From NCBI GenBank assembly GCA_903851235.1, contig CAINNR010000015.1, positions 11,327-75,326 of the forward strand: a stretch of 64,000 nucleotides of DNA. The letters run 5' to 3'. Positions 5,994 through 63,257 of this stretch are shown here, piece after piece (the stretch's first letter is position 1; the number at the start of each line of letters is the position of its first letter). The DNA is from an uncultured Candidatus Berkelbacteria bacterium. Its GTDB lineage: Bacteria; Patescibacteriota; UBA1384; XYA2-FULL-43-10; CAINNR01. The translations under genes were made by a program, and so were the position numbers. Under the pieces are notes generated by a model that saw only the letters and a program-made list of their open reading frames with translations, made no database searches and was not told the origin of the DNA.

Positions 5994-7646
5994 TTAGTCT
6001 TTTGTTACACGCCAAACTTCGGTTGTTGTTGTCACACCTTTTAGAACTTGAATCAAACCATCCTGCTCCATTGTGATCATTCCCTCTGAGAGGGCGGTTT
6101 TTGTAAACTCGGCGATGGTTGCTTGCCGGCCGATAAGCGCTTCCATCTCCGCCGACGGCACCAAAACTTCGGCGATAACTTGGCGGCCGGAGTAACCGGA
6201 TTTGTTGCAAACCGTGCAACCGGCACCGCGCTTGAGTTTTATTTGATTGATCGGCAAATCGAGCATTGCGGCAATTTGCGGTTCAATCCGCTCCTTAATC
6301 GGAGAGAGAATATTCTTTATTTCTTCCCAAACCGGTTCGGTCGGCGAAAACTCCTCGGCACATTTGGGACAAACTTTTCGCACCAGCCGCTGGCCCATAA
6401 TTAAATTGATTGAACCGGCCAAAAGAAACGGCCGAACACCGATTTCCAAAAGTCGCGGTAGCGCGGCGGCAGCGGTGTTTGAGTGAAGTGTGGATAATAA
6501 GAGATGGCCCGTCAGCGCCGCCTGGACGCCGATTTCCGCTGTTTCCTTGTCGCGTATCTCACCAACCATTAAAATGTCCGGATCCTGGCGCAGTGCGGCT
6601 CGCAGACCATCGGCAAAAGTATAGTTGGCCTCCGGATCAACCTGGCTTTGTTCGACGCCGGAAATTCGGTATTCAATCGGGTCCTCAAGCGAGATAATTT
6701 TAATTCCAGGTTTTTTAAGCTCCATTATCATCGCATAAAGCGTCGTCGATTTTCCCGAGCCGGTCGGGCCGGTATTTAGTATCATACCGTGCGGTTTGGA
6801 AATCGCCGACTCGATTATTTTTACTGCATCCGGTCGGAAACCCAAATCGGCCAGCTTTTGAATCGACATCTCCTGACCCAGGAGCCGAAGGACGAGGCTT
6901 TCGCCGTAGGCCGAAGGCAAGGTTGAGACACGGAGGTCGATTCCGTTTGATCCGCGCTTAATCGAAAAACGTCCATCTTGCGGTTCAGCTGTGACATCCA
7001 TCTTTAATTTTGCCAGAAATTTTATCCGGGATAATAGAAATTTGTAAGTCTGGGTGTTCATTCGCAAAACATCCTGTAAGACACCATCAATTCGATATCG
7101 GGCCAAAAAATCGTCGGCACCGGGCTCGATGTGAATGTCGGAGGCATCCATTTTCGCTGCCGCAAATAATATCAAGTCAAGAAGTTCCGTCGTTGTCACC
7201 TTTTTCGCCGCCTCGGTGATGTCGGCAATCGTCTTGACCTGATCAATCAAATCCTCCTGCCGCTGAGAAACATTTAGGGCTTTCTTTTGCTGGCGTTCCT
7301 GTAGCTGGCGGAAAGAGTCAATGGCAAAAAGCAGGCCGGTTTTCGAAACCAACGAGAAGATGAACTTTGAATTATTCGTCCGCGAATACTCTTCAAGGTA
7401 ATTTTGTAACCGATCATTAACGGAACTGATGACCGCAAGCTTAATTTCCTTACCGATTTTCAAATACGGCACAAAGTTGAATTCCGACATTTTTTCCGCC
7501 GGAAACAGTAAATAAAGCTCGGAAGCAAATGGATAGCCGACCAAATCGATGTACGGCATGCCGAGCTTCCCGGCTAAACTTTGCGTCAGTTCCTCTTCAT
7601 CCTGCCGACGCAAATTAAACAATTTTTGATCAATATCAACCATCAA
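5994..7646 (-). CDS. pilB: GspE/PilB-family secretion/pilus assembly ATPase
   Basis: Walker A GPTGSGKSTT, Asp/His boxes, C-terminal CPKC...CTVC tetracysteine, N-terminal GSPII_E_N-like region. Confidence 0.8.
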   Translation of the reverse strand: MMVDIDQKLFNLRRQDEEELTQSLAGKLGMPYIDLVGYPFASELYLLFPAEKMSEFNFVPYLKIGKEIKLAVISSVNDRLQNYLEEYSRTNNSKFIFSLVSKTGLLFAIDSFRQLQERQQKKALNVSQRQEDLIDQVKTIADITEAAKKVTTTELLDLILFAAAKMDASDIHIEPGADDFLARYRIDGVLQDVLRMNTQTYKFLLSRIKFLAKLKMDVTAEPQDGRFSIKRGSNGIDLRVSTLPSAYGESLVLRLLGQEMSIQKLADLGFRPDAVKIIESAISKPHGMILNTGPTGSGKSTTLYAMIMELKKPGIKIISLEDPIEYRISGVEQSQVDPEANYTFADGLRAALRQDPDILMVGEIRDKETAEIGVQAALTGHLLLSTLHSNTAAAALPRLLEIGVRPFLLAGSINLIMGQRLVRKVCPKCAEEFSPTEPVWEEIKNILSPIKERIEPQIAAMLDLPINQIKLKRGAGCTVCNKSGYSGRQVIAEVLVPSAEMEALIGRQATIAEFTKTALSEGMITMEQDGLIQVLKGVTTTTEVWRVTKD

Positions 7647-7707: not shown

Positions 7708-8625
7708 TTATTGATTTGCCAGTTTGTTGTAAATCAGTGTCCAGTAAGTCGAAAAATAGGCGTTGATTATGCCGCTGATCAGTAATATCAGCGCAATGTA
7801 TGCCAAAGCGGCTGGCGCGCCAAAGGCGATAACGGCAGCGAAACCGCCGGCGAAATAAATTCCGACACCAATGGCAAATAACACTCCGCCGACGATTAAA
7901 GCGATGAGTGCTAACCCGATTCCGGCCGCTAAACTCAGCGCCGCTTGAATCAACCAGGCAAGAATCACATTGGCGAAGTGGTGATGAACCAACTCTCTGG
8001 CGGCCGAAAACGCCGCGATAATTTTTTTGTTTTTGATCACAATTTCCCGATAACCGAATTGCAGTATCCAGCTAAGATATGCCGCCATAACGATGATTCC
8101 CAAAATCAACAATAGTCCGACCGGAATGACGATGATTAAAAACCAAAGACTGACTGACGCAACCAAGATGATTAAAGTTGCAACCAGCCCGGCAAGAACG
8201 AACACAATTGCAAAAATCATCAGCGCTACAAGTAATGTTAATCCGACGAAGCGCCAAAAATAGTTTTGGCCGGTGTGAAACGCGCTGTGAAATTCCGGTT
8301 TTTCATCCTCCGATTCAGCTTTGCCGATACTATAAATCAAGCCGGCTTTGGCCGAATATGAAACAAAAAGTAGAATTAACGAGATGATAAAAATCGCCAG
8401 GACAATTACCGTAAATTCCGCTCGATTACCGGAGACCCAATCAGCCAGCTTGTTCATCGATGATTGCATTGTATTCGAAGTGTTGGAAAAACTGCTGCTG
8501 GAATTATAGTAATTACCGACACCGCCTCCACCCTCGGCCAAGGCGGCCAAAATTCCCAAATACCAAAGCGCGCGGTATTTTTTAATATAGCCGAATGTTT
8601 TCCTTAAAATTTCAGCCCATTTCAT
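7708..8625 (-). CDS. polytopic membrane protein, unknown function
   Basis: Gly/Ser-rich stretch near N-terminus followed by at least 6 predicted TM helices; no recognised catalytic motif. Confidence 0.4.
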   Translation of the reverse strand: MKWAEILRKTFGYIKKYRALWYLGILAALAEGGGGVGNYYNSSSSFSNTSNTMQSSMNKLADWVSGNRAEFTVIVLAIFIISLILLFVSYSAKAGLIYSIGKAESEDEKPEFHSAFHTGQNYFWRFVGLTLLVALMIFAIVFVLAGLVATLIILVASVSLWFLIIVIPVGLLLILGIIVMAAYLSWILQFGYREIVIKNKKIIAAFSAARELVHHHFANVILAWLIQAALSLAAGIGLALIALIVGGVLFAIGVGIYFAGGFAAVIAFGAPAALAYIALILLISGIINAYFSTYWTLIYNKLANQ

Positions 8626-10240: not shown

Positions 10241-10777
10241 ATGACCATCAAAGATGTTGTCAAGCAGCGGAACAACATTAGGAAAGCCTGCTGGGGAGTT
10301 CTGTCCAGATATCCATCAGCAATTGAAGATCTGGTCGAAGATATCATTTTCCACATCGCCGGTAGGTTGGATAAATTCAGAGCTGAGAGTTCATTTGAGA
10401 CTTGGGTCCATCGAATCGCTACCAACCAAGCGATCAACAAGCTGAAAAAGCTGAAAAAAGAGGAGTGTTTGTCGCTTGATGCCTCAATTGGTGGCACAAC
10501 AGAGGATATCGATTTTGTCGACGTTTTGCTCGGCGACGGTCATTACGACCCTATGCCATCAATAGGGAGATTTCACGATTTGGAAACAATTCGCAATTCA
10601 CTCGCTTGGCTAAGGGAACACCACAATACGAATTATCGAGCGCTTTCGTTAGTTGTAGTTTACGGTTTTAGTAATCAATTTGCAGCGGAATATCTGGGTA
10701 TTTCACCGACATCAGTCCGGACAAGAATATTCCGAGCTAGAGAATCATTACGAAAAAGATTGGTTACTGAGAGATAG
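10241..10777 (+). CDS. ECF-type sigma-70 family RNA polymerase sigma factor
   Basis: Region 2-like WVHRIATNQAINKLKK and region 4 HTH YLGISPTSVRTRIFRARESLRKRL; GGAGGG RBS. Confidence 0.65.
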   Translation: MTIKDVVKQRNNIRKACWGVLSRYPSAIEDLVEDIIFHIAGRLDKFRAESSFETWVHRIATNQAINKLKKLKKEECLSLDASIGGTTEDIDFVDVLLGDGHYDPMPSIGRFHDLETIRNSLAWLREHHNTNYRALSLVVVYGFSNQFAAEYLGISPTSVRTRIFRARESLRKRLVTER

Positions 10778-10809: not shown

Positions 10810-11937
10810 TTATTTGCTATTTTCTTCGATTATTTTCTTATAAACCTTGGCGCTTTTGCGCGGCTGGCGATTAATATCATGCAGACCGAATTTCATTGTG
10901 TACCCACTCGACCATTCAAAATTGTCAATCAGAGACCAGTAAAAGTAGCCTCGAAGATCGGTGCCATCGGCGATGGCACGAGATAATTGCGAAAGATTGC
11001 CTTGAATAAATTTTTGGCGATCGACGTCAGCGGCCGGCGTGCCGTTTTCTGTTAGGTAGATCGGTAATCTCCAGCGCTTGGCCTCGATTAGCAGCTGATA
11101 TAGACTGTCGGCAATTTTTCCGCTTAGAATCGGCTTTTTCGCTTGAACTTTGTATGAGGCGTAGGAGTTAATACCGAGAAAATCAAGTTGCTTTCGGATT
11201 CGGCCGATAAAATATTCATTGACTATCCATCTTGCCAATCGGCTCAAGATTCGATCAAAAATATTTCGTCCGGCCGGTAAAAACGCGGTCATATTCATCG
11301 CAATTCCTACCTTGACCCTTGGATTGGCCTTTTTCATACTAATGTATGCTTGTTTATGAGCGGAAATTTGGTTAAAAAATGCCTTGACCCCAAGGATATA
11401 ACTCTTCTTTCCTGGGCACCAATCAGCAATAAAATAGCCTTTGTTGATATAGACATTCGGCTCATTTAATACCGACCATAATTCAACCGATCGCCCGAAC
11501 TCCTGCGCCATCCGGCCGGCAAAGCGAGCAAAATAGTCGATGGTTTTTCTGTTGGTAAATCCACCGATGTCGGCGACCCAAAGTGGAAGAGTGAAGTGAA
11601 ATAACGTCACCATCGGCGTGATATTATTTTTATTCAGTTCGTCGATCATTTCCCGATAGCGACCGATAACTTTTTTGTCAAAAAAACCTGGCGTTGGCTC
11701 GATTCGCGACCATTCGATGGAAAATCGATAGGCGTTTTGCGAAGTATTTTTCAGTAGTCGGATGTCTTGGCGCCATTTGTTCCAACTATCGGCTGAAATT
11801 TCTGATGTTCTGTGATCTGAAACATTGCCGGGAATTTTTTCCCAGCGCGCCCAATCGTTATTTAAATGACCTTCTATTTGGTGTGCCGCAGTCGCGGCAC
11901 CAAATAGGAAGTTTTTTGGAAATTTGAGTTTATGCAT
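10810..11937 (-). CDS. glycoside hydrolase family 1 beta-glucosidase
   Basis: FLFGAATAAHQIEG N-terminal signature, acid/base LNEP and nucleophile YLTENG motifs. Start moved to the Met preceding KLKFPKNFLFGAA (complement 11935..11937). Confidence 0.8.
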   Translation of the reverse strand: MHKLKFPKNFLFGAATAAHQIEGHLNNDWARWEKIPGNVSDHRTSEISADSWNKWRQDIRLLKNTSQNAYRFSIEWSRIEPTPGFFDKKVIGRYREMIDELNKNNITPMVTLFHFTLPLWVADIGGFTNRKTIDYFARFAGRMAQEFGRSVELWSVLNEPNVYINKGYFIADWCPGKKSYILGVKAFFNQISAHKQAYISMKKANPRVKVGIAMNMTAFLPAGRNIFDRILSRLARWIVNEYFIGRIRKQLDFLGINSYASYKVQAKKPILSGKIADSLYQLLIEAKRWRLPIYLTENGTPAADVDRQKFIQGNLSQLSRAIADGTDLRGYFYWSLIDNFEWSSGYTMKFGLHDINRQPRKSAKVYKKIIEENSK

Positions 11938-11980: not shown

Positions 11981-12289
11981 TTATATGTTATCGCTATCAA
12001 TGCTTTCTTGCATATAACGATAAACGATTGAAATAATTTCGCGGATATCGCCGTTGACATTTTTATATATTAAATTGTCAAAAGCAATATTTTTAAATTC
12101 ACGAATTGGGTCACTGATTAGGGCATGAATGAAAGATTGCGTTGCCCCATTTACACCACCAAAATCGATAATGACTTCATTTTGCTTCAATAATGCCGGC
12201 ATAAGCTGTTCTATCCTTATTCTTTTGGCAATGTCCTTGTTTTCAGCAAAATCTCCGGCCATTCTTTTAATTTTAATAAGATTTTTCAT
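11981..12289 (-). CDS. STAS-like DUF4325 protein (partner of GHKL ATPase)
   Basis: VIIDFGGVNGATQSFIHALI matches the DUF4325 core; start overlaps the upstream ATPase gene by 4 nt (operon). Confidence 0.5.
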   Translation of the reverse strand: MKNLIKIKRMAGDFAENKDIAKRIRIEQLMPALLKQNEVIIDFGGVNGATQSFIHALISDPIREFKNIAFDNLIYKNVNGDIREIISIVYRYMQESIDSDNI

Positions 12290-17369: not shown

Positions 17370-17597
17370 CTATAATCGGCTCAGCAAATCCTCGATTGCA
17401 ACTCCGCCTTTTTGAATTTTAGTAAAGTCAATCACTTCTTCCCATAATTCTTCCTCGTCGTGGTTAATGGGACAGATACGAAAAACCGGTTTGGATTTTT
17501 TTACCACCAAAAAACAATCGCCGGCAGCAATTTTCTTTTCGTAAGCAGGCAAATTTTCTCTTAATTCTTTTAGACCGATTATTTTTTCCATACACAA
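17370..17597 (-). CDS. putative Phd/YefM-like antitoxin
   Basis: 75-aa acidic protein immediately upstream of the RelE-like gene with a 9-nt gap; classical antitoxin position. Confidence 0.45.
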   Translation of the reverse strand: MCMEKIIGLKELRENLPAYEKKIAAGDCFLVVKKSKPVFRICPINHDEEELWEEVIDFTKIQKGGVAIEDLLSRL

Positions 17598-17668
17598 AGT
17601 TTAACTTAAGATAAACTTTGTGTCAATAACTATAAATACAGTGTGATAGTTCAGTAATCTGACAATGA

Positions 17669-18541
17669 TTATTTTCTCTTTCTCACCGTGATTTCCACCC
17701 CTTTAGCTCGTTCGCGCTTTTCGTCTGACTCGATCATTTTTTGATGCTCCGGGTGAAGCTCGGTTCCATCATCAGCGGCTGAATTATCAATTGTGTACTC
17801 CGGAAGTTCGGAAATCGGCACATCGGGAAATTTGCCCCAAAAGCCAAGTTTGTAATGCCAGTTGATATACCACTGCTGAAGAATCATCACCAGCGATGTG
17901 ATCACCCAGTATATTGCCAGGCCGGAGGGAAGCTGTCGGGCGATAAAAATTGTGATTAATGGGAAAAAGTAGATTATCTGCTTGTTCATCATCGCCATCG
18001 GATCGTTCGTGCCCTTCGATTGCGGTGGTTGCGGCATCATCTTAGTTTGGACAAATTGCAGAGCGCCGGCAACAATCGGCAAAATCCAAAGATCCGGTTT
18101 GGAAACATTAATTCCGAGAAAATTCAGATTAATTCCCGACGGTTTTGGAATGAAATGATAAAGAAGATTTAGGTGATCAAGATTGAAACCGATCAAAATC
18201 ACTCGGTAAAAAACAATTAAGACCACCATTTGAACGATCAGTGGCAAACAACTGCCGTAGGGCGAAACTTTGTGTTCTTTAAATAATCTTTGCATCTCCT
18301 GCGACATTTTCAACTGATCGGTTTTGTATTTCGCTCGAACTTGATTTAACAACGGTTGAATTTTTTGCATTTCGATTGTCGATTTTGAGGCTTTAAGTGA
18401 CGTCGGCAACAAAATTATCCGTATAATTATAGTCAAAAGAATAATCGCCAAGGCGACCTGATGCCCGGGAATAACGGCAACGAAATACATCAGCATGTTA
18501 TAAAACGGAATATAGAGAATTGTGGTAAAAAAATGAGCCAT
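17669..18541 (-). CDS. yidC: membrane protein insertase YidC/Oxa1 (short Gram-positive type)
   Basis: Five TM helices, conserved C-terminal basic tail, synteny with yidD-rnpA-rpmH. Confidence 0.85.
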   Translation of the reverse strand: MAHFFTTILYIPFYNMLMYFVAVIPGHQVALAIILLTIIIRIILLPTSLKASKSTIEMQKIQPLLNQVRAKYKTDQLKMSQEMQRLFKEHKVSPYGSCLPLIVQMVVLIVFYRVILIGFNLDHLNLLYHFIPKPSGINLNFLGINVSKPDLWILPIVAGALQFVQTKMMPQPPQSKGTNDPMAMMNKQIIYFFPLITIFIARQLPSGLAIYWVITSLVMILQQWYINWHYKLGFWGKFPDVPISELPEYTIDNSAADDGTELHPEHQKMIESDEKRERAKGVEITVRKRK

Positions 18542-18691
18542 AAACTCCTTAAGTTAAAATCAAAATGTCAAAATCCAAATTTCAAATGAAATACTTGCGA
18601 CAAATGTTCAAAAAATTCAGTTTTTTAACCTCGACTTGCCGAAGGTGAGACGGGTGAGCTTCATTTGATATTTGAGCTTTGAGTTTTGGGC

Positions 18692-18925
18692 TTATTCCAG
18701 CGGGTCACATCCCCCATGACTCCATGGATTACATCGTAGCACACGCCAAGCCCCAAGCGCAATGCCCCTGATTACTCCCCGCTTCTCAATTGCTAACTTG
18801 CAATATTCGGAGCAATCCGGCTGATACTTACAGTAACCAGCAGGATAACGGCTGGAAAACCAGCCGTGGTCAGGCGACAGGGTTTTTTGATATAGTTCGA
18901 TAATTTTTATAAGAAATTTTTTCAT
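18692..18925 (-). CDS. yidD: membrane protein insertion efficiency factor YidD
   Basis: CKYQPDCSEYCKLAIEKRGVIRGIALGAWRVLRCNPWSHGGCDPLE signature. Confidence 0.8.
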   Translation of the reverse strand: MKKFLIKIIELYQKTLSPDHGWFSSRYPAGYCKYQPDCSEYCKLAIEKRGVIRGIALGAWRVLRCNPWSHGGCDPLE

Positions 18926-18990
18926 GAATTTTCATAGTCATTTCAAACAATAACATTGAAATGACTAAACTATTTGAGAGTATTGGATAT

Positions 18991-19326
18991 TTACCCGATC
19001 TTTTTTAATAAATCGGATAATTCTGTCTGGACGTCGGCAAGTTTTAACGGCCAATTTGGCAATTTGTGGGCGGTCAGAACAGCATCAAAGCCTTTCGGCA
19101 AAGTTTGTAACTCTAGGCGAATAACTTCTCGCAGGCGGCGTTTTAAGGCGTTTCTTCGAGTCGCCCTTTTATCAACCTTGGTACCGACAACGACAGCGAA
19201 ACGGATAGCGCCCAGGCGATTTGGCGCATAACGTATAGAAAAATTGACCGACCGAATCGATTTGCCGAATTTGAAAACTCTTTGAATCTCATTTGATTTT
19301 CTAAGCCGATTGATATTATTCAGCAT
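18991..19326 (-). CDS. rnpA: ribonuclease P protein component
   Basis: Basic 111-aa protein with RLRKSNEIQRVFK N-terminus, position upstream of yidD. Confidence 0.8.
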   Translation of the reverse strand: MLNNINRLRKSNEIQRVFKFGKSIRSVNFSIRYAPNRLGAIRFAVVVGTKVDKRATRRNALKRRLREVIRLELQTLPKGFDAVLTAHKLPNWPLKLADVQTELSDLLKKIG

Positions 19327-19354
19327 TGAACTGATGATAGCACTATTTTACGAA

Positions 19355-19387
19355 CAAAAAAAGGCGCCTGACCCGAAGGCCAGACGC
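19355..19387 (-). terminator. rho-independent terminator of the high-GC cassette (UUCG tetraloop)
   Basis: On minus strand gcgucuggcc-UUCG-ggucaggcgc (10-bp stem with 2 GU) followed by UUUUUUU. Confidence 0.65.
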
Positions 19388-19412
19388 TTGTTACATTTGT
19401 GAATGTCGGAAT

Positions 19413-20033
19413 CTAGAAGTTGATCTTGAGGCTGCCCTCGATACGGGCGGTGTCAGTAGTCTTATTGTTCACCCCCCACAGGTAGCGGAGCGACAACGAG
19501 CTACCACCGGGGCCGCTGATCTCGACTTTCGGACCGACGCCCAGTGTATTCCCGGTCCCTTCCTGCCAACAGTTCGAGACGGCAACGCCGACTCGGACAT
19601 TGTGGCGGACCGGATGACTGACGGCCACCTGGTTCGTGTACAGCACCCAGGGGCCGTTGTTGAGGGGAATATAGGCACCACCTGCGGACTCAAACTTCCA
19701 GTCCGATCCCAGCTCGTGGTTGTACACCCAGAACGGCTCCGCGAAGAGCTGGGACGACTTGTCCCACCATGAGACATAGCCACCCAGCAGCAGTGTGTCA
19801 CTCTTGCCGGCCTTCACAGGCCAAAGGCGGCCTGCTTCGTAGACCGGGAAGTCCGGCTGAGAGAAAGACCACAGCTCCCAGCCGCTGGCATCGAGCCAAG
19901 CGCTGGTCAGACCAGCGTGCCCACCTCGGGGCATGTCCACACGCCCAAGGAGCGTGCCATCTGCGTGGGCGACGGCGGACGACAGAACCAACATCATCAA
20001 GGCGACGAACAGAACAGCGGTGCGTTGCATCAT
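19413..20033 (-). CDS. high-GC ORFan: secreted protein with signal peptide, C-terminal Phe (beta-barrel-like)
   Basis: Roughly 60% GC versus roughly 40-50% in flanks. Start at MMQRTAVLFVALMMLVLSSAVAHA with AGGGAGG RBS. Alternating hydrophobic pattern, ends ...IEGSLKINF. Inserted between rpmH and rnpA. Confidence 0.5.
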   Translation of the reverse strand: MMQRTAVLFVALMMLVLSSAVAHADGTLLGRVDMPRGGHAGLTSAWLDASGWELWSFSQPDFPVYEAGRLWPVKAGKSDTLLLGGYVSWWDKSSQLFAEPFWVYNHELGSDWKFESAGGAYIPLNNGPWVLYTNQVAVSHPVRHNVRVGVAVSNCWQEGTGNTLGVGPKVEISGPGGSSLSLRYLWGVNNKTTDTARIEGSLKINF

Positions 20034-20098
20034 ACTGGAAACGCCTCCCTCTGCTTGGTTTTTTGGTACCAAGCGACCGGATATGACTGTGTATGGGC

Positions 20099-20127
20099 AT
20101 TATAGCAAAAGTATATACTTTTGTCAA
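20099..20127 (-). promoter_or_regulatory. consensus sigma70 promoter driving the high-GC ORF
   Basis: Minus strand TTGACA (20122-20127), 17 nt spacer, TATAAT (20099-20104). Confidence 0.5.
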
Positions 20128-20128
20128 C

Positions 20129-20159
20129 TAAAAAAGAGCCTCTTGGACTCTATTTTTTT
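20129..20159. terminator. bidirectional hairpin, likely rpmH terminator
   Basis: agagcc-tcttg-gactct hairpin flanked by AAAAAA upstream and TTTTTTT downstream on the plus strand. Confidence 0.4.
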
Positions 20160-20175
20160 ATTGGATGATAAAAAT

Positions 20176-20313
20176 CTAGGCGACGGAAAGTAGTTTGCGA
20201 CCTTTTTTTCGTCGTCGGGCAATAACAGCAACACCATCGGCTGTTTTCATCCTGGTCAGAAAACCGTGGTTTTTATGTCGTCTTCGATTGTTCGGCTGAT
20301 AGGTTCTTTTCAT
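20176..20313 (-). CDS. rpmH: 50S ribosomal protein L34
   Basis: Minus-strand translation [45 protein letters not shown] (45 aa), below the ORF-track length cutoff; divergent from dnaA. Confidence 0.85.
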
Positions 20314-21865: not shown

Positions 21866-22307
21866 TTATTCACATGGCTTTTTAAACTATTAGTCTTTAA
21901 ATATACAATAATCATAATAATAAGGGCTGTTGATAACTGGATAACAGTAAATTTAATCCCAAATAACTAGTGTCTGTGGTTGATAAACTGTTAATAAAAC
22001 GGTTAACAAAGCTGTTAATTACCCGGTAGGTTGTTAATAACTTTTAAAATAAATAGTTAAATTGATGGTAGTATAGTATAGACTGTGGATAACTACCAAA
22101 GTTATCAACAGGGCTGTTAATAACTCTGTGGATAACTACACTATTTGATTAGGGAATCAGTGGTAATTTATTGCAAAAGTTATCAACAAGATAATAAATT
22201 ATAGATTGTAAAATATTAAATTATAATAGCGGAAATAATTATTAACAAATCATTTAATCATTGCTATTTAATATTTTAACTTCATTATTTATCTAAAAAG
22301 GAGAATT
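21866..22307. promoter_or_regulatory. candidate oriC (dnaA-dnaN intergenic region with DnaA boxes and AT-rich unwinding element)
   Basis: Perfect TGTGGATAA at 22084-22092 and 22127-22135, one-mismatch boxes at 21928-21936, 22103-22111, 22180-22188, gggctgtt(g/a)ataac repeats, very AT-rich 22190-22300. Confidence 0.6.
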
Positions 22308-24887: not shown

Positions 24888-25160
24888 ATGGACAGAATTG
24901 ACAAAATATTGATGCCGGTAATGGCCAAGAAGGGGCTCGGTGGGGCGGCGGTAGCGGCTCAGATTTGCTTTTATGCCTCTGAATATGGCAAAGGTAGTTT
25001 TGTTGCAACTTCGTTTTCTAAGGGCGTTCTAAAGCTTTCCTGTGCTGATTCAATTGACGCCGGCGAGGTGCAAATGATGAGTGAGGAAATAATTACTCAT
25101 GTTAATGAAAAAATCGGGAGAGAAATAGTTTCAAGGATAAGAATAGTGAACTCATCGTAG
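24888..25160 (+). CDS. hypothetical protein (90 aa)
   Basis: Start placed at MDRIDKIL after the terminator; Gly/Ala-rich small protein, no confident family assignment. Confidence 0.35.
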   Translation: MDRIDKILMPVMAKKGLGGAAVAAQICFYASEYGKGSFVATSFSKGVLKLSCADSIDAGEVQMMSEEIITHVNEKIGREIVSRIRIVNSS

Positions 25161-25219
25161 CTAAGTCTTCTCTAATCGAATAATGCGTCCAATGAAGCTT
25201 GTGTCTACTATCAAGCTAT

Positions 25220-25249
25220 TGACTTTTTAGTTCTCATATGCTATAATTG
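25220..25249 (+). promoter_or_regulatory. near-consensus sigma70 promoter for second high-GC ORF
   Basis: TTGACT (25220-25225), 18 nt spacer, TATAAT (25244-25249). Confidence 0.45.
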
Positions 25250-25314
25250 GGCGTTATGGTGAAGTTGCGCGAGGCAATCACCAAACAGTACGATTGAAAA
25301 GGACTGATCGAATA

Positions 25315-25914
25315 ATGAAAAAGACTTTGGTTGTTATACTGGTTCTTGCCGTACTGGCCGTTCCAGCGCTCGCGAAGGATCGCGGGCACAACGGAGGAGG
25401 GGACAAACGCGGCGGTGGAGAGCACCATGGACGTCCGGCGATCACGCTGGGCAGTGTCCTGGGCGCGGCAGCGGGTTTGTACCTGCTGTCGCGTATTGAT
25501 CGCTGCGTGCCGGAGTATATGCCGGCACCGTGCCTGCCTGTCTACCAGACGCCGGTGTACGGACCGGTGTTGCAGGATCCCGTTTGCCAGTTGCCGGGGT
25601 ACGGCGGTATTGGTCACACCGGTCGTTACGACGTGCCCTGCGTTGTCGAGTCGCAGGGCAACCGCATGATCGTCAACCGGCCCTATCGGCCGGGGACCCA
25701 GCTGACGGTGGAGGGCGAGTGGGTGACGGACCCGAACACTTTGCAGCCGCTGTATAGGAGGGAGCAGGGGTCGTTGGTTGTTGTTACATCCAACGGAGCC
25801 ACCTCTCTCTGCGACGTATTGCGTGGTGGCGCAAATCGCGGAGACGATATCATTGTCGTCGCCACCCCCTCTCCTGTGCCAGCACCGGCCACGGCACCGG
25901 TATATCAGCCGTAA
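25315..25914 (+). CDS. high-GC ORFan: secreted Cys-containing protein
   Basis: Roughly 60% GC. Signal peptide MKKTLVVILVLAVLAVPALA. Gly/His-rich segment, six Cys, Pro-rich C-terminus. Confidence 0.5.
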   Translation: MKKTLVVILVLAVLAVPALAKDRGHNGGGDKRGGGEHHGRPAITLGSVLGAAAGLYLLSRIDRCVPEYMPAPCLPVYQTPVYGPVLQDPVCQLPGYGGIGHTGRYDVPCVVESQGNRMIVNRPYRPGTQLTVEGEWVTDPNTLQPLYRREQGSLVVVTSNGATSLCDVLRGGANRGDDIIVVATPSPVPAPATAPVYQP

Positions 25915-25922
25915 GAACACAA

Positions 25923-25960
25923 GCGCTCCCCGACAGATCATGTCCGGGAGCGCTTTTTTC
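25923..25960 (+). terminator. rho-independent terminator
   Basis: gcgctccc-cgacagatcatgtcc-gggagcgc followed by TTTTTT. Confidence 0.65.
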
Positions 25961-26001
25961 ATTTCAATTAAACACACTAAGGTGTGGTATACATTGCTGT
26001 G

Positions 26002-29000
26002 TTAGAATCCGATATGGGTATAATTTGTTGTTTGCGGATTGACCCAGAGTCCGGCGCGGGAGCCACTGCAACCGCCGACTTTGGAACAGATAACATCATC
26101 CACCTTATATTGCCAGTAATCAACATCCTCTTGGCGGCCGGTCATAATTTGCGACGGAATCGCCAAGGCGTCGCCGGTTCGTTCCGATAATGCCAACACA
26201 TCACCGGCCAAAGTTTTCGCCTTGTACTGGGCGGCGGTAATATAGCCGGACTTTTTCGCCGTCGGATCCAAGCCATTAAAGGTGCCGAGATTCCCGTTGT
26301 CGGAAACAGAAGGATCGGGTTTGGCATCAACCCCGGGATAGTAACCGTCGGCGGTACAGGTGACCTCGGTCTTGTAAACACCGAATAAATTCATTAGGAC
26401 AAAGATTGCGACCGAAATCGGATTAAAGCCGGTGATAAGCATTGAAACCAACATCGAACCGGTGCCGGGAACCAAGCCGACAGCGGTTTCAAATTGGCCG
26501 ATCTGTTTTGAGAAAACCAAATTGACGACGAAAGCGATGCCGGCGGATTCAACATTTGACAGGTTCCCCTTGGCGTCAGCTAATTGTTTATTTGCTGTCA
26601 CGAGGTTTTTCGCTTCTGCAGCGCCCCCGGTTGCAGCATCTGCGGCACCGGCTACAGCCATATTGGCACTGGAGATAGCGGCGTTGGCGGCAACAATTTC
26701 TCGGTAGGTCGTATAAATAGTGAATGCTGTGCCCGATGGCAGACCGAGCGCTTTATCGGCCCAACCGGTGATCTTGCTGATGCCCCAATCTTTGTAAATA
26801 TTTTCCAGGCTTTTTATCGGCGTGCCGACTCCCGGGATGGTGATATCGGCGGTGAAATTGCCGTTTTTCAAGCCGTAAGCCAGGGCGGTGAAAGTTCCCG
26901 GTTGGAGCTGAAACCCGAGTAAATTGCCGAGTTTGCCATCGATCCAACTGTCAAGATTCGCCATTTTGCCGTTTTTGACCATTGTATCGAGATCAAAACC
27001 CTTTGGATTCTGGAAAAATGATGTCAGTGAGTTATACAGATCAATTCCAAGATCAAGCTTATTGTAACTGACACCGTTAAACGATAGAGTGCCGAGAGCA
27101 TTTTTTGCGTAACTCATCAACATTGCTGTTCGCTGGACACCGTTGCCGGAGTACATGGTTTTAACGAAGCCGGCGGGGATATTTTGATCAACTTGGTAAA
27201 GTTTGGCATCAGCCATTCGCCAGAGCAGATTGTTTTTTGTTACAGTGTCGGCCTGTTTTCGAGCCGCTTCCTGTACGCTGTTTAAATCCTCAATTGATTG
27301 AGAATTTTTTTGTACCGCCGCCATCATCGCCACCGGATCAACCGTCGGATTCGCCGGATAGTCTTGGGCAAAGCCGGTGCTTGCAGCATCGTAGGCAGCA
27401 TAAGTCGAATAACTCGAAGCTGTTGGGTTGGTCGGGTCATAACAAGTATTCCCCATTGCCGTTGATCCGGGGGCGCACTGACTGGCATATAAGGTTGTCG
27501 CCGGTGAACCGGCCATCTCTGCCGTCTCGGTTACCGACGCGATCGGGTTCGCTTTGTTCAAATTTGTCAGATAGTTGTTGGTTGCGCTGTCAACGTAAGA
27601 TTTTTCTAACGTCGGGTTACCCATGATCGAATAATAGATATCTTCATATGTAATGCGAAAATATGCCGGTAGATTGGCGGTGGTTGAACCGTTGTAAATG
27701 TGCAGGGCTTCCGCCGATTTAACCGCAGCCGTGATCTCCAAAACTCGCAAATCGCCATGAACCAACATGTTGGTGCTTTGCAAAATCAAGTCCTGTGTTT
27801 TCGGCATACCGGCGTAATTTCCACTGCCCGGACTTGGGGTGGCGATGATACCGATTTTCGACAGGTAATCGCCGACCAATTGCTCGCCGATCTGTTGCCC
27901 ATAATACTCCCAGCGGTCGGCACTAGAGCTTATTGATATGGCACCAAAATGACCGGTGGTCGGTATTGAGTCACTAGCGCGAAAAGTTGTCAGGCCGGTT
28001 TTCCAACCGTCGGAATATGGAAGAGGCCCACCGAGGCCGATGTAGGCGGCGGTAAATGAGGCGCCGGCGGTTGGATCAAGACCGAGTGAATTATCGAGTT
28101 TCTCAATACCGGAGAGCAACAACGATGCGGCAGCTTGCTCCGGATTGGTAATAATTCGGCCGATTGTGCCGGCGGAAAGCCCGAGTTTGCTGTCAAGATC
28201 AATGCCAAAAACTTGGGAGAAGTTATTAAAGATTGCGCCGTAATCACATGAAGTGGCGGCCGAAGTCCCAATTATTGTCTTGCTGCCGCAGGCTTTGATT
28301 CGCTGGAAGGTGTTTGTAAAACCATCAATCTTGCCCAGCGTTGCGGAATCGATTCCCAGTAGTTTGCCCCACGTATCGATGCCTGTCGGTGTTAAGCCGA
28401 TCACGGTGTTGGCGACATCGTGGCGGTAGTCGTCGGGAGTTATTTTTGAAGTCAGAAGTTGCTGAGTCGTTCCGGCCGGAAGTCCGAGCTGGGAGTCGAT
28501 GCCACTGACCTGATTTAAAAAGTTGGTCGTTTGATAGAGAGTAATACTTTGTGTCGGGTTTGAGGTGGAAAATGCGTCGGCTGAACTACCGTTAAAAGCT
28601 AAATTTAGTGTTGAAGTGATATTTTTTTCAAGCGCCGGATTCGTCAGGGCGATCGGGGCGATATTAGCGGTGCTGGCGGGATAGTTAACGTGACTTTCGG
28701 CCAGTTGATATTGGCTGGCGATTGATTGCTCGGCGATTGAAGCGGCCAACGATAAATTTGTAATCGCATCCGGGGTCAGAATTTCCGACGGTGGCAATTG
28801 GAATGCCCGAGCGAAGGCCACCGGGCCAATATTATCCATCAACTCCTGCAAGGTTGAGCCGCGGAAGGAGTTTGACGGCAAGTTGAGAACCTTCTCGATT
28901 TTCGCCCCACCGATATTTTCATAAATGTTTCCTGAGAGAGAAACAGTGCCGAGACCGAGCATACCGCCGACAAAATTGGCACCCAAATTCGCCAGCGAAC

Positions 29001-32000
29001 AGTTACGAATAATTGACGACGTTGATTGAATTATATTAATAACCTGATTCGAGCCGACTCCAAGTTGACTCTCGAGATATTTTGAGCCGATTTTATCAAC
29101 CGCTAGGGTGCCGTTTCCGGAGAGCAGATCGAAAATATCGCTAGCATCAATTTTCATTCCGGCAACGGTGACACCCATGCCGGCGAAGACTGCAGTCGTA
29201 ATTCGGCTTTCAGCCGTTCGCTTGCCGATTGTCTCCAAATACGGATTGATCGGTTTCTGACTCAAATTGGCGAGTAGATCTTTGCGGTTGAAAAGGTTTT
29301 GCAGCGTAGTGACGGGGATGTTTAATTTGTTGCTGATATTTGCTAGTTCATCACTTGAAAACGCCGCCGCTTTTGATGGAGTGGAGAGAAAACTGTTCAA
29401 CTCGCTCTGATAAGTTGCGGCTGTTGCGGCATCAAAAGAGTTTGGAACGGCCGGGTTGGAAGCCAAACCCTGGGACAAGGCTTTGACAAAGTCGACTTGC
29501 GAGCTCGCGTTGCTTTCGGCGTAACTTCTGGCTTCATTGATGCTCGGAAATGCGTGAGTGCCACTGGCGTCGGCATAAACATAGGAGTTATCGACTATCT
29601 GACTGCTGACAGAGAAAGTAATACCGTTTTGTTTTGTATAACTGAAACCGACCGGGCAACTGCCGGTAGTCGTCGGGCTGGCGATCTGCGAAGTGAAGCC
29701 GTTATGGGCGTTATATGTTATCAGGTTAGCGTAATTTTGATTCAAGCCATTAGTCAAACTTTGAGCGCTGGTTTTGACCCGAGTGAAAGTGTCGATGACA
29801 TTTTGGGGTAAATTTAATCGTCCGGCGATCAGCTCGGCGTCGGAGCTGCCCAAAGTATCGGTTGAAACTGACTGTCCGGAGAGAAATTTCAAACTTGTTC
29901 CGGCCGGTAGTGCCAATGAAGTATCTAGATTGCCGGCGGCCAGCGCCACCTGCGAACCGCTAGCGAATGAGCTGGCACCGGTGATTGAAGAAATATCAGC
30001 CGGCAAATTAAGCGCTCTCATAACTTGGGCCCCGGCTTCGGCCGAGGAGATGCCCCAAACCTTGCTTACATGATCGCGAACGTCGGAAAGTGTTGCCAGT
30101 GTGCCCGGAGTGCCACCCTGAAAGAAGTTTGGCGGCAGATGTAAGGTTTCCTCCAGTTGGGCTTGACCGATAGATTGGAAGAAGGCGTCTTGCCCATCAA
30201 TATTTGACGAGTCGGTTTTATTTTTAATAAAAGTGGCGTAATAGTAAATTGAATTTTTCGGCAGGTCGAGTGAACTTTCAATTTTGTTGGCACCGATCGA
30301 AATTAGAAAATTCTCCGGTGTCATCTTGCCGGCCAGCATCAGAGCTAAAGAGGCGGCTGAGATCTGGGTGCCGGAGCTGGCCGAGGTTGAATCGTTGGTA
30401 TTTTGAACGCCGATGCTGCCGAGATCGGAGAGTTGGAGCGATGAAATAGAGGATTGCGGTTTACCGGTCAAAATTTCCTCGACTGCCTGGGCAATATCGG
30501 CAAAATCAAGCGCGGTGGTGTTGGCTTTATCTTTTAAACTTTGGTTGGCGGCGACAGAGTTTTTCAGAGCGCCTGAGGCCTGGTCGAAATTAACCGCCGA
30601 GTTTCTAGTGACACTAATTGCTTGAATCCCGGATGATAGGCCATTGGTGTCAGCTTTTTCCACCTCTGATTTGGCACTAGCGATGTTGGTTTTGAAAATC
30701 CCGATATTGGCATCGCTGCTGGTAACACCGGCCCAATCACTTTGAATTTTTGCTGTTTTTGTCTGAATCAACTGGATTCTGGTTTTGTAAAAATCGACAG
30801 TTTTCAGAGCTGAGGTAATCTCCGGGTGCTGGGCCAAATAAGAGGCTTCAGCTTGTTTTACCGCCGAAGAATTTGCGATTCCGTTGTAGAGCGCGGTCTG
30901 GCCAAGACTTTTCAGCACCGGTTGCGGATTGACATTCGAGCAGCCGAATAGGCGGAAAAAATCACCACGTGAAAGACCGTAAGTTGTCATGAATTGACTT
31001 TCCGGCAAAGTCACGACTTTCGTCGTTGTCGTTCCGGCGATGGTGATGGTTACTGTTGCCACTGATGGAACGGCGCAATCGCTACTGGTAAGTTTGTTAT
31101 TAAACCACTGTACTAATGCGGCCCGAACATCACTGTCGCCATTGAAAGCTTGGGCCAAGGTGTCGGCGCCGATCTGTTGAAAGTTCGATGCCAAGTTTGT
31201 GCCGGCCAAAATGTCGGTCATTCGGGCGTTGGCGCTGGCGGTGGTGATACTGTTTGATGTACTATCGACTGATAGTCTGGCGGCATTGGCGGCGGCGGTT
31301 GATGAGGCGAAAGAGTAAACACTATCAGCCAAAATCTTGTTGGCAACCAGCGTCGCATAGGCATCCGGTGGTAGAGCGCCGGATTTGTACTGAGCGGAGT
31401 AATTATTTAACCCCAGTCCAAGTTTTTCATCAACACTGGTCGGATTTTGATAAACCAAATCAATTTTTCGCTGACCGGCGACGGTTTCAAGTTTTTTAAA
31501 ATTAGTATCGGTGCCGAACGCTCCTGCCGGCAAAGCCAAATCATTTTCAATCGTTCGCCGTCCAATTACCAACCTCAAACTCGTCGGATCAGTGATTGAA
31601 GATGACAGCGTGTTGGTCGGCAGATTGAGCGCCGACTCGACATGGCGTTCGCCGGTATTAATCAAAATTTCATTCAAATTATTGCCCTGAATTGAGCCCC
31701 AAGGCAGATTTAACTTCTTCTCCAGTTGGGCTTCGCCGATTTTGGCTTCCAAGTCATTTACGTCGGCCAAATTGGCATTGATAAAAGCTTGCCGCGGTAA
31801 ATTCAAATCATCGGCCAGCGCCATGCCGCCGATTTTTTTGATTGTGTCGGCAAAGTCCGTGCCGGAAATCGCCATATTCGGAGAATTTAACATTTCGCCG
31901 ATCAGCGATTTTCCGATTAAACCGACGATGTCGGAGAAGCCGGCTTTCGATAAATCGGTCGTCGAATCAACGGATATTCCCAACTGATCGAGTAAATCGA

Positions 32001-33246: not shown

Positions 33247-33248
33247 AA

Positions 33249-34673
33249 TTACGGAGTTTTATTTAAAACGCTCAAATCACGGACGTATAAATACTCGCCG
33301 ATAACATTGTATTTTTTATTACTGCTGTGAAAATTGGCTACGTCTTCGGCGGTTGTGGTAACGGCGTGATTATCACAAAGAAGTTCGAAGTGAAGGTGAG
33401 GGTGATTCAGACCGGTCCAACTTGCGCCAATTTTTTGACCGACGGTTACATCGTCACTGCTGGTTACACTTTGCATATGGGCGTACACCGCTCTAAAGGT
33501 TTTACCGACGCTGTCTTTGCCTTCAATATATATGTAGTCGCCGGAGTGGTTCCCGCGCTTTGTAATATGACCGGAGAAGGCGGCGTAAACCGGTGTGCCA
33601 CCCGAATCGCCAATATCAGTGGCGTCATTGGTGCATTTGTTATTGTTGATGAATGTGCCATGTCCGGGAACCGATTCGCATCTCATAAACGATCCACCAT
33701 GCAATGTGCTGTTAAATCCCTTTACATCTTTTGGACTGATTGGATAGGCGGTTTCTCCGCTGAAGTGAAAAGGAACCGTGGCGAAGATATCCAAAAGTTG
33801 CCCGACGGCGGTGACGATTTTCAGGCCGGCGGCATTTTCTTTCGCATCGCCTTGCGGCAGCGTTTGAAAAGCTTTGACTAGTCCGACAATTTCATCAATC
33901 TTTGCTGAAATTTTTGCTTTGGTTGTAGAGTCATAGTTGCTTAGAGGCGGCGAATTCAGATCATTTTTCATTGCCGCCAAGTCACCTTGCAATCCGGAGA
34001 GGACATCGGCTGTTAATGACTTGGTGACATCGCTGTTTCCGCTCAATGCCAAAATTTTGGAAATCCATGGGCGATCATGCAAGATATCGGTGGCTTCTAC
34101 TGGGCTTGAACCGTTGACGTTCGGTGTTTGGAGGGCGCGAATAAGGAAAACCAGTGCGACGACAATGATAACTATTCCGACGATGGCGAGCAAAATCGGT
34201 AACCAATATCCGGCCGTTGTGGCGGCGATTTTAGTTCCGATTTGAGCCGCCCATTTTGTTGCTGATCCAACGGCTTTTTTCACCGCATCGCCAGCGACAT
34301 CGGCTAGCGGTTTTGCGGCGCGTTTAGTCGCTGTTTTTTTCTCATCTTCGGCTTGTTCTTTGGCTTTTTCTTGCGCCGTTTCGCGCGGCTGTACCGCCGG
34401 ACCACCGGGTTGAGCCTCCTTGACCGCTGCTGGCGTAAAAACATCATCCGATTTAAATTCCGGCACCTCGGCTTGCTGAATTTGCTCCTCAGGCGTGCCC
34501 GATTTTACCTTTGCTGTTTCATTTGCATTATCATCGGTTTTCGGTTGATGAGCATCTTCGATTTCTTCTTCATCAATATCAAAATCGGCCGAAGTTTCCG
34601 TCGGAACATTAATTTGAGCCCGTTTAATATCGTCGGCGACCCTCCGTTTGTACTGATCTGGCGACTCAGCCAC
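33249..34673 (-). CDS. membrane-anchored M23 (LytM-type) metallopeptidase
   Basis: Acidic disordered cytoplasmic N-terminus, one TM, C-terminal HxxxD (HGGSFMRCESVPGHGTFINNNKCTND), DIGDSGGTPVYAAFSG and HLHFEL motifs. Confidence 0.7.
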   Translation of the reverse strand: MAESPDQYKRRVADDIKRAQINVPTETSADFDIDEEEIEDAHQPKTDDNANETAKVKSGTPEEQIQQAEVPEFKSDDVFTPAAVKEAQPGGPAVQPRETAQEKAKEQAEDEKKTATKRAAKPLADVAGDAVKKAVGSATKWAAQIGTKIAATTAGYWLPILLAIVGIVIIVVALVFLIRALQTPNVNGSSPVEATDILHDRPWISKILALSGNSDVTKSLTADVLSGLQGDLAAMKNDLNSPPLSNYDSTTKAKISAKIDEIVGLVKAFQTLPQGDAKENAAGLKIVTAVGQLLDIFATVPFHFSGETAYPISPKDVKGFNSTLHGGSFMRCESVPGHGTFINNNKCTNDATDIGDSGGTPVYAAFSGHITKRGNHSGDYIYIEGKDSVGKTFRAVYAHMQSVTSSDDVTVGQKIGASWTGLNHPHLHFELLCDNHAVTTTAEDVANFHSSNKKYNVIGEYLYVRDLSVLNKTP

Positions 34674-34723
34674 TGATCCCTCCGTTTCAAATTAGTCGAA
34701 TGAGTCTAATCGGACCAATTGGA

Positions 34724-37413: not shown

Positions 37414-37480
37414 TTACTTTCAATCAAAATATAAAATATATATGATAGATTTCTGATAATCTCGAAATGATTTTGAAAAA

Positions 37481-39274: not shown

Positions 39275-39312
39275 AATCTCCCCAAAATTAATTTAATTTA
39301 TTCATAATAATA

Positions 39313-40815: not shown

Positions 40816-40821
40816 ATTTTT

Positions 40822-42969: not shown

Positions 42970-42980
42970 TTCAAGTTGAT

Positions 42981-62952: not shown

Positions 62953-63063
62953 GAGTCTTTTCTACTAATTGAATAATGCCTCTAACGGATCCCATAGGTT
63001 GACAAAATCATGATCTTAGAGTTATAATTTCACTAGCTAATAATTAATTTGATAAGGAGAGAT

Positions 63064-63210
63064 ATGGGATCAGATTGTTCCAGTTGCACCCATTGTGACG
63101 ATTGCGGTGTTGCCGAGCCAAAAGTTAAGGAAACCGAAGCTTGCGAATGTTCGAAGTGTCATTGCAATCCGTGCAAATGCGGTGAGGAAAAAAAAGAAGA
63201 AAAGAAATAA
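63064..63210 (+). CDS. 48-aa Cys-rich peptide (metallothionein-like)
   Basis: TAAGGAGAGATATG RBS; MGSDCSSCTHCDDCGVAEPKVKETEACECSKCHCNPCKCGEEKKEEKK (10 Cys, CxxC and CxC arrays); terminator immediately downstream; not in ORF track (<60 aa). Confidence 0.5.
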   Translation: MGSDCSSCTHCDDCGVAEPKVKETEACECSKCHCNPCKCGEEKKEEKK

Positions 63211-63232
63211 TTTTTCTGAAATAATCAAAATT

Positions 63233-63257
63233 CCCGTGCAAATGCGCGGGTTTTTTG
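63233..63257 (+). terminator. rho-independent terminator
   Basis: cccgtgc-aaat-gcgcggg followed by TTTTTTG. Confidence 0.55.

Follow-up and report, generated by a model that had tools for sequence, protein, structure and literature searches.

Porins of the KdgM family are substrate-inducible. TrmB-type regulators include archaeal members that respond to sugars (PMC4158304). The Patescibacteria, or candidate phyla radiation (CPR), have been described as monoderm (PMC11665869; 10.1101/2025.01.22.634366), and an outer-membrane-type barrel is therefore odd in this lineage, as an earlier reading of the letters alone (referred to here as the sequence-only reading) had remarked. In the literature library that was searched, no paper was found that treats beta-barrels, porins, or TrmB proteins of Patescibacteria or Saccharibacteria. 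Here, we describe a gene for a predicted outer-membrane-type beta-barrel in a 64-kb stretch of DNA from an uncultured Candidatus Berkelbacteria bacterium (64,000 nt of contig CAINNR010000015.1; referred to here as the window). The gene forms a single-gene unit on the minus strand (window positions 19355 to 20159), between rpmH and rnpA. We propose, with a probability of about 0.62, that this barrel cassette is an accessory gene of a Berkelbacteria lineage, inherited vertically and conserved across the clade, and encodes an outer-membrane-type barrel, probably a small-solute channel.

The coding sequence (19413 to 20033, minus strand; delimited from the list of open reading frames [ORFs] and from homologs) comprises 207 codons including the stop. 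The protein is 206 amino acids long from its ATG, and the length of 207 given earlier is thus correct for codons but not for residues. The signal peptide (aa 1 to 24, encoded at 19962 to 20033, minus strand) reads MMQRTAVLFVALMMLVLSSAVAHA|DG around a signal peptidase I site, and residues 2 to 22 form a helix in the structural model. AlphaFold supplied with 4 sequences returned a predicted local distance difference test (pLDDT) score of 51, and this model was set aside for a run on a 71-sequence alignment (pLDDT, 95.1; predicted template modeling score, 0.83). The resulting model consists of the signal helix and twelve long antiparallel strands connected by short turns. In a Foldseek comparison with the PDB, the best match was KdgM (4pr7_A; E value, 8.7e-7; template modeling score, 0.61 by query and 0.71 by target; root mean square deviation, 4.1 over 182 columns), and further matches included OmpG, FapF, NanC, a designed barrel, intimin, a COG4313 channel, and Tsx. 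The top 50 listed PDB matches were outer-membrane barrels plus one designed transmembrane barrel. Against a viral structure library (E value of ≤0.001), all matches with a name were porins or outer-membrane barrels of phages, and the other matches were uncharacterised. On the strength of this model, the window protein is confidently predicted to be an outer-membrane-type 12-stranded beta-barrel. The sequence-only reading had pointed in the same direction from the signal peptide, the alternating hydrophobicity, and the C-terminal ...KINF, all of which are present in the sequence, and the likeness is borne out by the pLDDT of 95 and the structural matches to KdgM, NanC, and OmpG.

To describe the family, a profile of four orthologs was run against 1.84 billion cluster representatives. 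A total of 101 representatives were retrieved with an E value of <1e-3, including 70 with an E value of <1e-10, and nearly all were 185 to 210 aa long. The clusters that were looked up had 1 to 4 members each, mostly metagenomic. Family members carrying a taxon-like label were assigned to Ca. Berkelbacteria, to "Patescibacteria group bacterium," or to the soil bin BH11PAT4, and no diderm- or actinobacteria-labelled relative was found among the clusters looked up. Signal peptides were detected heuristically in 66 of 71 members. The window protein terminates in L-K-I-N-F, and a terminal F is found in 54 of the 71 members (76%) and a terminal W in 2; the closest orthologs (in the related loci L003 and L009) end in ...IKLD and not in Phe. 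A family-wide dyad pattern, with one hydrophobic and one polar face, was recognized in 9 of the 12 strands. Weak matches to the Pfam family Phenol_MetA_deg (COG4313) were obtained for 4 of the 71 members (best E value, 7.9e-6). Judged by sequence, the window protein belongs to no curated family. The barrel family, for which no Pfam or NCBIfam model exists, is new and uncharacterised; its fold is known, but its occurrence in this phylum is unexpected.

Close relatives of the window gene are rare. Besides the exact protein, only three close homologs (61 to 65% identity) were present among 5.8 billion proteins, one of which was labelled Candidatus Berkelbacteria, and a close ortholog was found in 1 of 185,579 GTDB species representatives (Ca. 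Berkelbacteria ELA134). Orthologs at 61 to 65% identity lie between rpmH and rnpA in L002 to L011, L018, and L029 to L031. These contigs share the neighborhood of the window, in which dnaN, dnaA, and rpmH flank the ortholog at one end and rnpA, yidD, and yidC at the opposite end. L012 represents a fourth lineage, in which the ortholog is followed by the same TrmB gene. A further ENA contig, for which only protein records were available, has the same barrel gene, after which an ORF of 106 aa occupies the position of rnpA.

The divergence of the barrel gene parallels that of DnaA, DnaN, and RecF in the three lineages compared, with the same topology and at about twice the rate. Between the window and L003 or L009, identity is 0.80 or 0.78 for DnaA, 0.87 or 0.85 for DnaN, and 0.62 or 0.61 for the barrel protein; between L003 and L009, it is 0.82 for the barrel and 0.86 to 0.90 for housekeeping proteins. 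The rpmH gene of the window has 91% identity with its L009 ortholog.

Whereas the window has a single gene between rpmH and rnpA, the gap measures 6 to 8 kb in relatives (L003, 4507 to 11640; L009/L018, 4366 to 12082). There it holds genes for a small acidic protein, a ~200-aa membrane protein, the barrel ortholog, TrmB-family regulators (one or two), a protein of 197/198 aa, and a major facilitator superfamily (MFS) transporter, along with lineage-specific genes. The 197/198-aa genes are paralogs of the barrel family (E value, ~1e-21) and are divergent from TrmB. The barrel cassette is the sole element common to the islands of all four lineages. The comparison of these contigs shows, at the level of gene content, that an island of variable makeup has its fixed slot between rpmH and rnpA in this clade and that the window carries the minimal version of it.

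The sequence-only reading had described a secreted-protein gene of about 60% GC between rpmH and rnpA, and this holds (GC, 0.61; both neighbors confirmed by Pfam). The mean GC of the window is 0.437. GC at third codon positions (GC3) is 0.74 in the barrel gene, compared with 0.44 ± 0.06 in 45 other ORFs (z of ~4.9). When the 64 kb is scanned in windows of 621 nt, GC rises above 57% in just two stretches, namely, the barrel gene and positions 25150 to 26180, where a second, unrelated GC-rich gene lies. Codon usage in these two genes correlates with r = 0.50 mutually, compared with r = 0.21 (barrel) and r = 0.14 (second gene) against the rest of the window. The amino acid sequence of the barrel protein leads to an expected GC of 0.513 versus 0.612 observed. 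Of the 17.5 points of GC excess, ~7.5 can thus be ascribed to amino acid composition and ~10 to codon choice, and an origin of the excess purely in amino acid composition was rejected.

This bias recurs in each lineage. Orthologs have 59 to 62% GC and a GC3 of 0.73 to 0.80 within surrounding genomic DNA of ~40 to 45% GC; the ortholog loci average 44.5 to 48% GC, with housekeeping genes at 36 to 43%. Other island cargo is also GC-rich, at 51 to 62% in L003 (small acidic protein, ~200-aa membrane protein, two barrel paralogs, and MFS transporter) and at 48 to 62% in L009 (including an RpoA-CTD-like protein), while the TrmB regulators amid this cargo are at native GC (38 to 43%). Distant family members likewise have elevated GC3 relative to neighboring genes in L014, L016, and L017. 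At fourfold-degenerate sites of conserved residues, the barrel genes of the window and L003 are 38% identical versus 32% expected from composition, and the corresponding values for dnaN are 34% versus 26%. Fourfold usage in the barrel gene of each lineage is approximately C 0.44, G 0.30, T 0.20, and A 0.06, compared with a fourfold A+T of 0.5 to 0.7 in housekeeping genes. Synonymous sites are therefore near saturation yet remain GC-rich in each lineage, which means that the bias is maintained and is not the scar of a recent transfer. As far as sequence comparison goes, high GC is shown to be a maintained steady state of the barrel family and other cargo genes in these genomes. Responsible for this would be either selection that acts on the codons or mRNA properties of a gene expressed at a high level or, alternatively, an exchange hotspot with GC-biased gene conversion. 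Strong expression fits the consensus promoter, the strong ribosome-binding site, and the position near the presumed origin.

The consensus promoter (TTGACA-17-TATAAT), the AGGGAGG ribosome-binding site, and the UUCG terminator of the cassette, all named in the sequence-only reading, are indeed in the sequence. The sigma-70-type promoter (20099 to 20127, minus strand; -35 at 20122 to 20127 and -10 at 20099 to 20104) matches the consensus at 12 of 12 positions and has a TG extended -10. Three sites of the form TTGAC-N17-19-TATAAT occur in the 64-kb window, compared with 0.09 expected. A Shine-Dalgarno sequence (AGGGAGG; 20044 to 20050, minus strand) lies 10 nt 5' of the ATG. The cassette ends in an intrinsic terminator (19356 to 19387, minus strand; terminator scan, -20.1 kcal/mol; z = -4.2) whose 10-bp stem, GCGUCUGGCC-UUCG-GGUCAGGCGC, is closed by a C(UUCG)G tetraloop and followed by a U-run; it is minus-strand specific because the stem contains two G-U pairs. 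Equivalent terminator hairpins with altered stems are present in L003, L009, and L012. These signals make the barrel gene, as we infer from the sequence, a complete, autonomous, monocistronic expression unit. Two other gene models in the cassette were discarded: a 219-aa TTG-start form of the barrel ORF begins 5' of the ribosome-binding site and finds no support in the homologs, and antisense or off-frame ORFs of 105 to 110 aa are by-products of high GC, homologs being found for the 206-aa frame only.

The promoter region (from -35 to ~+10) is better conserved than the coding sequence and is near-invariant in the four ortholog lineages. The spacer between -35 and -10 is spanned by a perfect 18-bp palindrome, CAAAAGTATATACTTTTG (20106 to 20123), identified by reading the sequence, which is a putative operator. 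Its 12-bp core, AAGTATATACTT, has a single exact occurrence in the 64-kb window, is invariant in the alignment of ortholog promoters, and occurs once in each of 12 ortholog loci examined, always at the barrel promoter. This distribution suggests that the palindrome is probably the operator of a dimeric repressor. Just 5' of the ribosome-binding site, RNA folding predicts a 5' untranslated region (UTR) hairpin, CUUGGU-ACCAAAAA-ACCAAG (20054 to 20073, minus strand). Leader hairpins fold at the same place in the window, L003, and L012, and the stems differ in a compensatory manner (CUUGGU/ACCAAG versus CUGGG/CCCAG). A search of the 5' UTR and cassette against Rfam yielded only one sub-threshold chance match (E value, 0.97), and a known RNA element there was accordingly rejected. 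A hairpin-forming leader motif, TGTGTTGTTACGAT...TCGTAA, which starts near the predicted transcription start, is shared by two unrelated cargo genes elsewhere, a distant barrel-family gene and a 140-aa gene (L013, ~200 to 290; L009, ~10500 to 10597), and possibly represents a leader element common to such genes.

Genes for TrmB are found beside family members in L009, L012, L014, L016, L017, and L027, i.e., in six of seven independent contexts outside the window with enough flanking DNA. In Patescibacteria-like contigs, such genes can be dense (L017, 1 to 14837, with five in 15 kb; L016, 3035 to 6286; L014, 7091 to 8600; L027, 2677 to 5600), and they are typically divergent from cargo with elevated GC3 (methyltransferases, barrel-family genes, and a radical S-adenosylmethionine enzyme). 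This arrangement suggests a widespread regulator-plus-cargo module, and we found no literature on such a module. Palindromes of the form TGTCAA-N-TTGACA overlap the -35 hexamers of TrmB-adjacent genes (L003, 9292 to 9458; L009, 7233 to 7405; L014, ~7844 to 8000). As candidate operators for TrmB, they could account for the near-consensus -35 boxes in these genomes.

The abrupt change of composition at both ends of the cassette is what would be expected if a GC-rich fragment had been joined into a CPR contig, and the sequence-only reading had raised such chimerism. A contig from another assembly, seen in five samples (L001), is, however, 100% identical to window positions 17448 to 20199 (2,752 nt), a match that runs from inside yidC to inside rpmH across both junctions; moreover, each boundary of the cassette falls exactly at functional signals, with the rpmH terminator and the promoter at one end and the cassette terminator and the rnpA -10 element at the other, and relatives show the same synteny. 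An assembly artifact is therefore next to impossible. Recent horizontal acquisition from a high-GC donor, such as the actinobacterial host put forward in the sequence-only reading, would account for the GC of 0.61, the GC3 of 0.74 versus 0.44, the poor codon correlation with the window (r = 0.21), and the self-contained unit with its own promoter and terminator. We regard it as very improbable, given that the gene stands at the same site behind the same promoter in three other lineages, with divergence parallel to that of housekeeping genes, and that its near-saturated synonymous sites are GC-rich in each lineage, with no decay toward the composition of the recipient. As something that would count against its view, the sequence-only reading had named relatives sharing the gene at this site with normal GC; they do share it at the site, but its GC is equally abnormal there. 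Direct and inverted repeat searches of the cassette flanks returned only short, chance-level repeats, and no integrase or transposase was found among the ORFs between yidC and dnaN, so that insertion by a mobile element was also rejected. No named non-Patescibacteria homolog appeared among the 1.84 billion representatives, and the second, unrelated GC-rich gene likewise has a GC-rich counterpart in another Berkelbacteria genome. An older event is easier to reconcile with these data: a diderm outer-membrane gene could have been captured long ago and spread through exchange of TrmB-linked islands, its GC being kept by biased conversion or by repeated supply from GC-richer Patescibacteria donors rather than by selection for expression. 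The fold does belong to diderm outer-membrane families, cargo genes next to TrmB have elevated GC3 beside regulators of native GC, the content of the rpmH-rnpA slot varies between lineages, and codon usage is similar in the two GC-rich genes (r = 0.50). Ortholog divergence that fits the housekeeping topology in the three comparable lineages and a promoter conserved in place make this scenario unlikely, though deserving of some weight; it partly overlaps the best explanation and is not exclusive of it.

A different question is whether the product enters a membrane at all. It might be a secreted soluble barrel with a hydrophobic interior, e.g., a carrier of lipids or hydrophobic ligands that scavenges host lipids. 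The dyad pattern alone does not indicate which face is the outer one, the organism is considered to have no outer membrane (PMC11665869), three strands are hydrophobic on both faces, and the family to which the weak Pfam link leads, COG4313/Phenol_MetA_deg, is associated with hydrophobic substrates. Yet all of the top 50 listed PDB matches and all named significant viral matches are transmembrane and none is soluble, 12 strands are too wide for a packed hydrophobic core, and the C-terminal Phe (76% of members) is a signature of membrane-inserted outer-membrane proteins. We give a soluble barrel slightly less credence than the ancient capture. The proposal of a vertically inherited outer-membrane-type barrel has to be held against several observations that weigh on the other side. 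Patescibacteria are described as monoderm (PMC11665869; 10.1101/2025.01.22.634366). The strands with two hydrophobic faces are S2, S3, and S5. Searches with the window protein gave no sequence match in Pfam (E value of ≤1), NCBIfam, or the PDB. Most family members are on unlabelled metagenome contigs, and the restriction to Patescibacteria is that of the labelled members. With respect to regulation, tblastn found no TrmB homolog in the 64-kb window, and the palindromes beside the TrmB genes of relatives (TGTCAA...TTGACA, e.g., TGTCAAATATTTGACA) are unlike that of the barrel promoter.

There is strong support for the barrel cassette being an autonomous, conserved gene whose product is exported by Sec and has a 12-stranded barrel fold. 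If it is such an inherited channel gene, its expression would be strong but conditional, from a consensus promoter with a putative operator. We infer that the barrel most likely serves as a channel for small solutes in a lipid barrier that lies beyond the cytoplasmic membrane of the symbiont. As the phylum is regarded as monoderm, this barrier could be the host membrane or an unrecognised outer layer. Uptake of nutrients, possibly carbohydrate, is suggested by the TrmB-type regulators and MFS transporter beside paralogs and by a BNR-repeat protein in L014. Three possibilities are thus considered for the location of the barrel, i.e., the host membrane, an unrecognised outer layer, or, as a soluble ligand-binding barrel, neither. 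The broader claim that Patescibacteria, regarded as monoderm, strongly express and export a private family of 12-stranded barrels, with a C-terminal Phe as in substrates of the beta-barrel assembly machinery (BAM), as a feeding channel in the host membrane, or else have an unrecognised outer lipid layer, is in our view speculative and quite doubtful. If true, a channel in the host membrane would be a new mechanism of nutrient acquisition by episymbionts, and an outer layer would revise the current view of the CPR envelope.

The genes on either side of the cassette were identified as rpmH (ribosomal protein L34; 20176 to 20313, minus strand; PF00468; E value, 1.8e-21) upstream and rnpA (RNase P protein; 18991 to 19326, minus strand; PF00825; E value, 1.6e-22) downstream. 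The latter is followed by yidD and yidC; YidD and YidC were confirmed by Pfam, as were the products of dnaA and dnaN, which lie upstream in the opposite orientation. An intrinsic terminator of rpmH (20135 to 20151, minus strand; AGAGUCC-AAGA-GGCUCU followed by a U-run) was found by terminator scan (fold energy, -7.6 kcal/mol; z = -2.5), and a hairpin with a T-run also lies just 5' of the cassette promoter in relatives. The dnaA-dnaN intergenic region (21866 to 22307) is strongly AT-rich (22 to 30% GC), and a DnaA-box-like sequence, TGTGGATAA, is located at ~20436, between rpmH and dnaA. The replication origin (oriC) is probably in the dnaA-dnaN intergenic region, which would place the barrel cassette ~2 kb from it.

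The sequence-only reading had expected the cassette terminator to disturb expression of the RNase P protein by separating rnpA from rpmH transcription. A conserved extended -10 element before rnpA in each lineage argues otherwise. This element is TGCTATCAT in the window (19334 to 19342, minus strand; 7 nt 5' of the ATG), TGCTATTAT in L003 (~11615 to 11640), and TGCTAAACT in L018 (~12060 to 12082), at an equal distance from the ATG. The gene upstream of rnpA differs among the window, L003, and L018, and the element is kept regardless. No Shine-Dalgarno sequence precedes rnpA in any of the three. A conserved -10 only 7 nt from the ATG, together with the lack of a Shine-Dalgarno sequence, predicts an independent, leaderless rnpA mRNA. 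The rnpA gene is thus probably transcribed separately from its own element, and rnpA would be uncoupled from rpmH transcription in this clade, to judge from the conserved signals.

The second GC-rich stretch of the window contains a cassette of similar construction (25219 to 25959, plus strand), with a TTGACT-17-TATAAT promoter, a gene for a secreted protein, and a terminator. The gene (25315 to 25914, plus strand; 62% GC) encodes a secreted protein of 199 aa without a Pfam or NCBIfam match and is unrelated to the barrel gene. This cassette recurs in the same context in several assemblies, and homologs of its protein were found only on Berkelbacteria-labelled or unlabelled contigs. The homolog in Berkelbacteria assembly GCA_002779135.1 (L024) has 65% GC within a contig of 44% GC and is syntenic, with a DciA-like gene on one side and the gene of a giant protein on the other, as in the window.

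A third consensus promoter, TTGACA-18-TATAAT, is situated within 62999 to 63250 (plus strand), 5' of a 48-aa ORF (63065 to 63211) with its own terminator. The encoded peptide, MGSDCSSCTHCDDCG...CNPCKCGEEKKEEKK, is Cys-rich with a Lys/Glu tail and is metallothionein-like in appearance. Host-interface genes occur at 1251 to 3335, 5994 to 7646, and 26002 to 43769 and encode a type IV secretion system (T4SS) pilin-domain protein, a PilB/GspE ATPase, a VirB4/TraG-like type IV secretion ATPase, M23 and M15 peptidoglycan peptidases, and CarboxypepD_reg-domain proteins. The set further includes a secreted surface protein of 2,414 aa that has no Pfam domain and terminates in ...THIGF. The sole known RNA found in the whole window was one tRNA-Ser.

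The barrel family bears on how CPR/Patescibacteria draw nutrients from their hosts. It has all sequence hallmarks of a BAM substrate and, as far as labels go, appears to be restricted to Patescibacteria. A porin-type family in a presumed monoderm phylum provides a concrete, clonable candidate for a channel at the host interface and allows the assumption of a monoderm envelope to be tested directly. The locus also illustrates that an anomaly in GC and codon usage can last for long evolutionary times at one site, where composition alone would miscall a recent transfer. In Berkelbacteria, the rpmH-rnpA junction, near the presumed origin, appears as a fixed slot that accommodates accessory genes for surface and transport functions.

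Among known systems, the KdgM/NanC porins (PDB 4pr7, 4fqe, 2wjq, and 8xua) resemble the window protein in being 12-stranded antiparallel barrels of ~180 to 210 residues that follow a Sec signal peptide. They differ in sequence (13% identity, with no sequence match, and a KdgM model matched by 0 of 71 relatives) and in host, which is a proteobacterium for KdgM/NanC and a presumed monoderm CPR bacterium here. The COG4313/PF13557 Phenol_MetA_deg channels (PDB 4rl8) are also 12-stranded barrels and form the sole curated family with any sequence signal, but the window protein does not match their model, and its ~180 mature residues, versus ~270 in the solved chain, imply much shorter loops than in that chain. 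OmpG, FapF, and Tsx (monomeric barrels of 12 to 14 strands) and the phage barrels share the overall fold, and the phage barrels are also encoded by small autonomous genes; they differ in strand number or plug domains, have no sequence relationship with the window protein, and belong to a diderm envelope in which barrels are assembled by BAM.

With respect to regulation, the locus is comparable to TrmB (PF01978) repressor/operator systems in having a palindrome in the core promoter and, in relatives, TrmB genes flanking family members. The archaeal TrmB site is TACT-N3-AGTA (PMC4158304); the half-sites here consist of the same tetranucleotides in reversed order (AGTA-TA-TACT), and in this case, the window has no TrmB gene. 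Finally, like genomic islands at conserved slots, the locus has variable content of atypical composition between core genes (rpmH and rnpA). Unlike such islands, it has no integrase, tRNA target, or flanking repeats, and the barrel cassette itself appears to be stable and vertically inherited.

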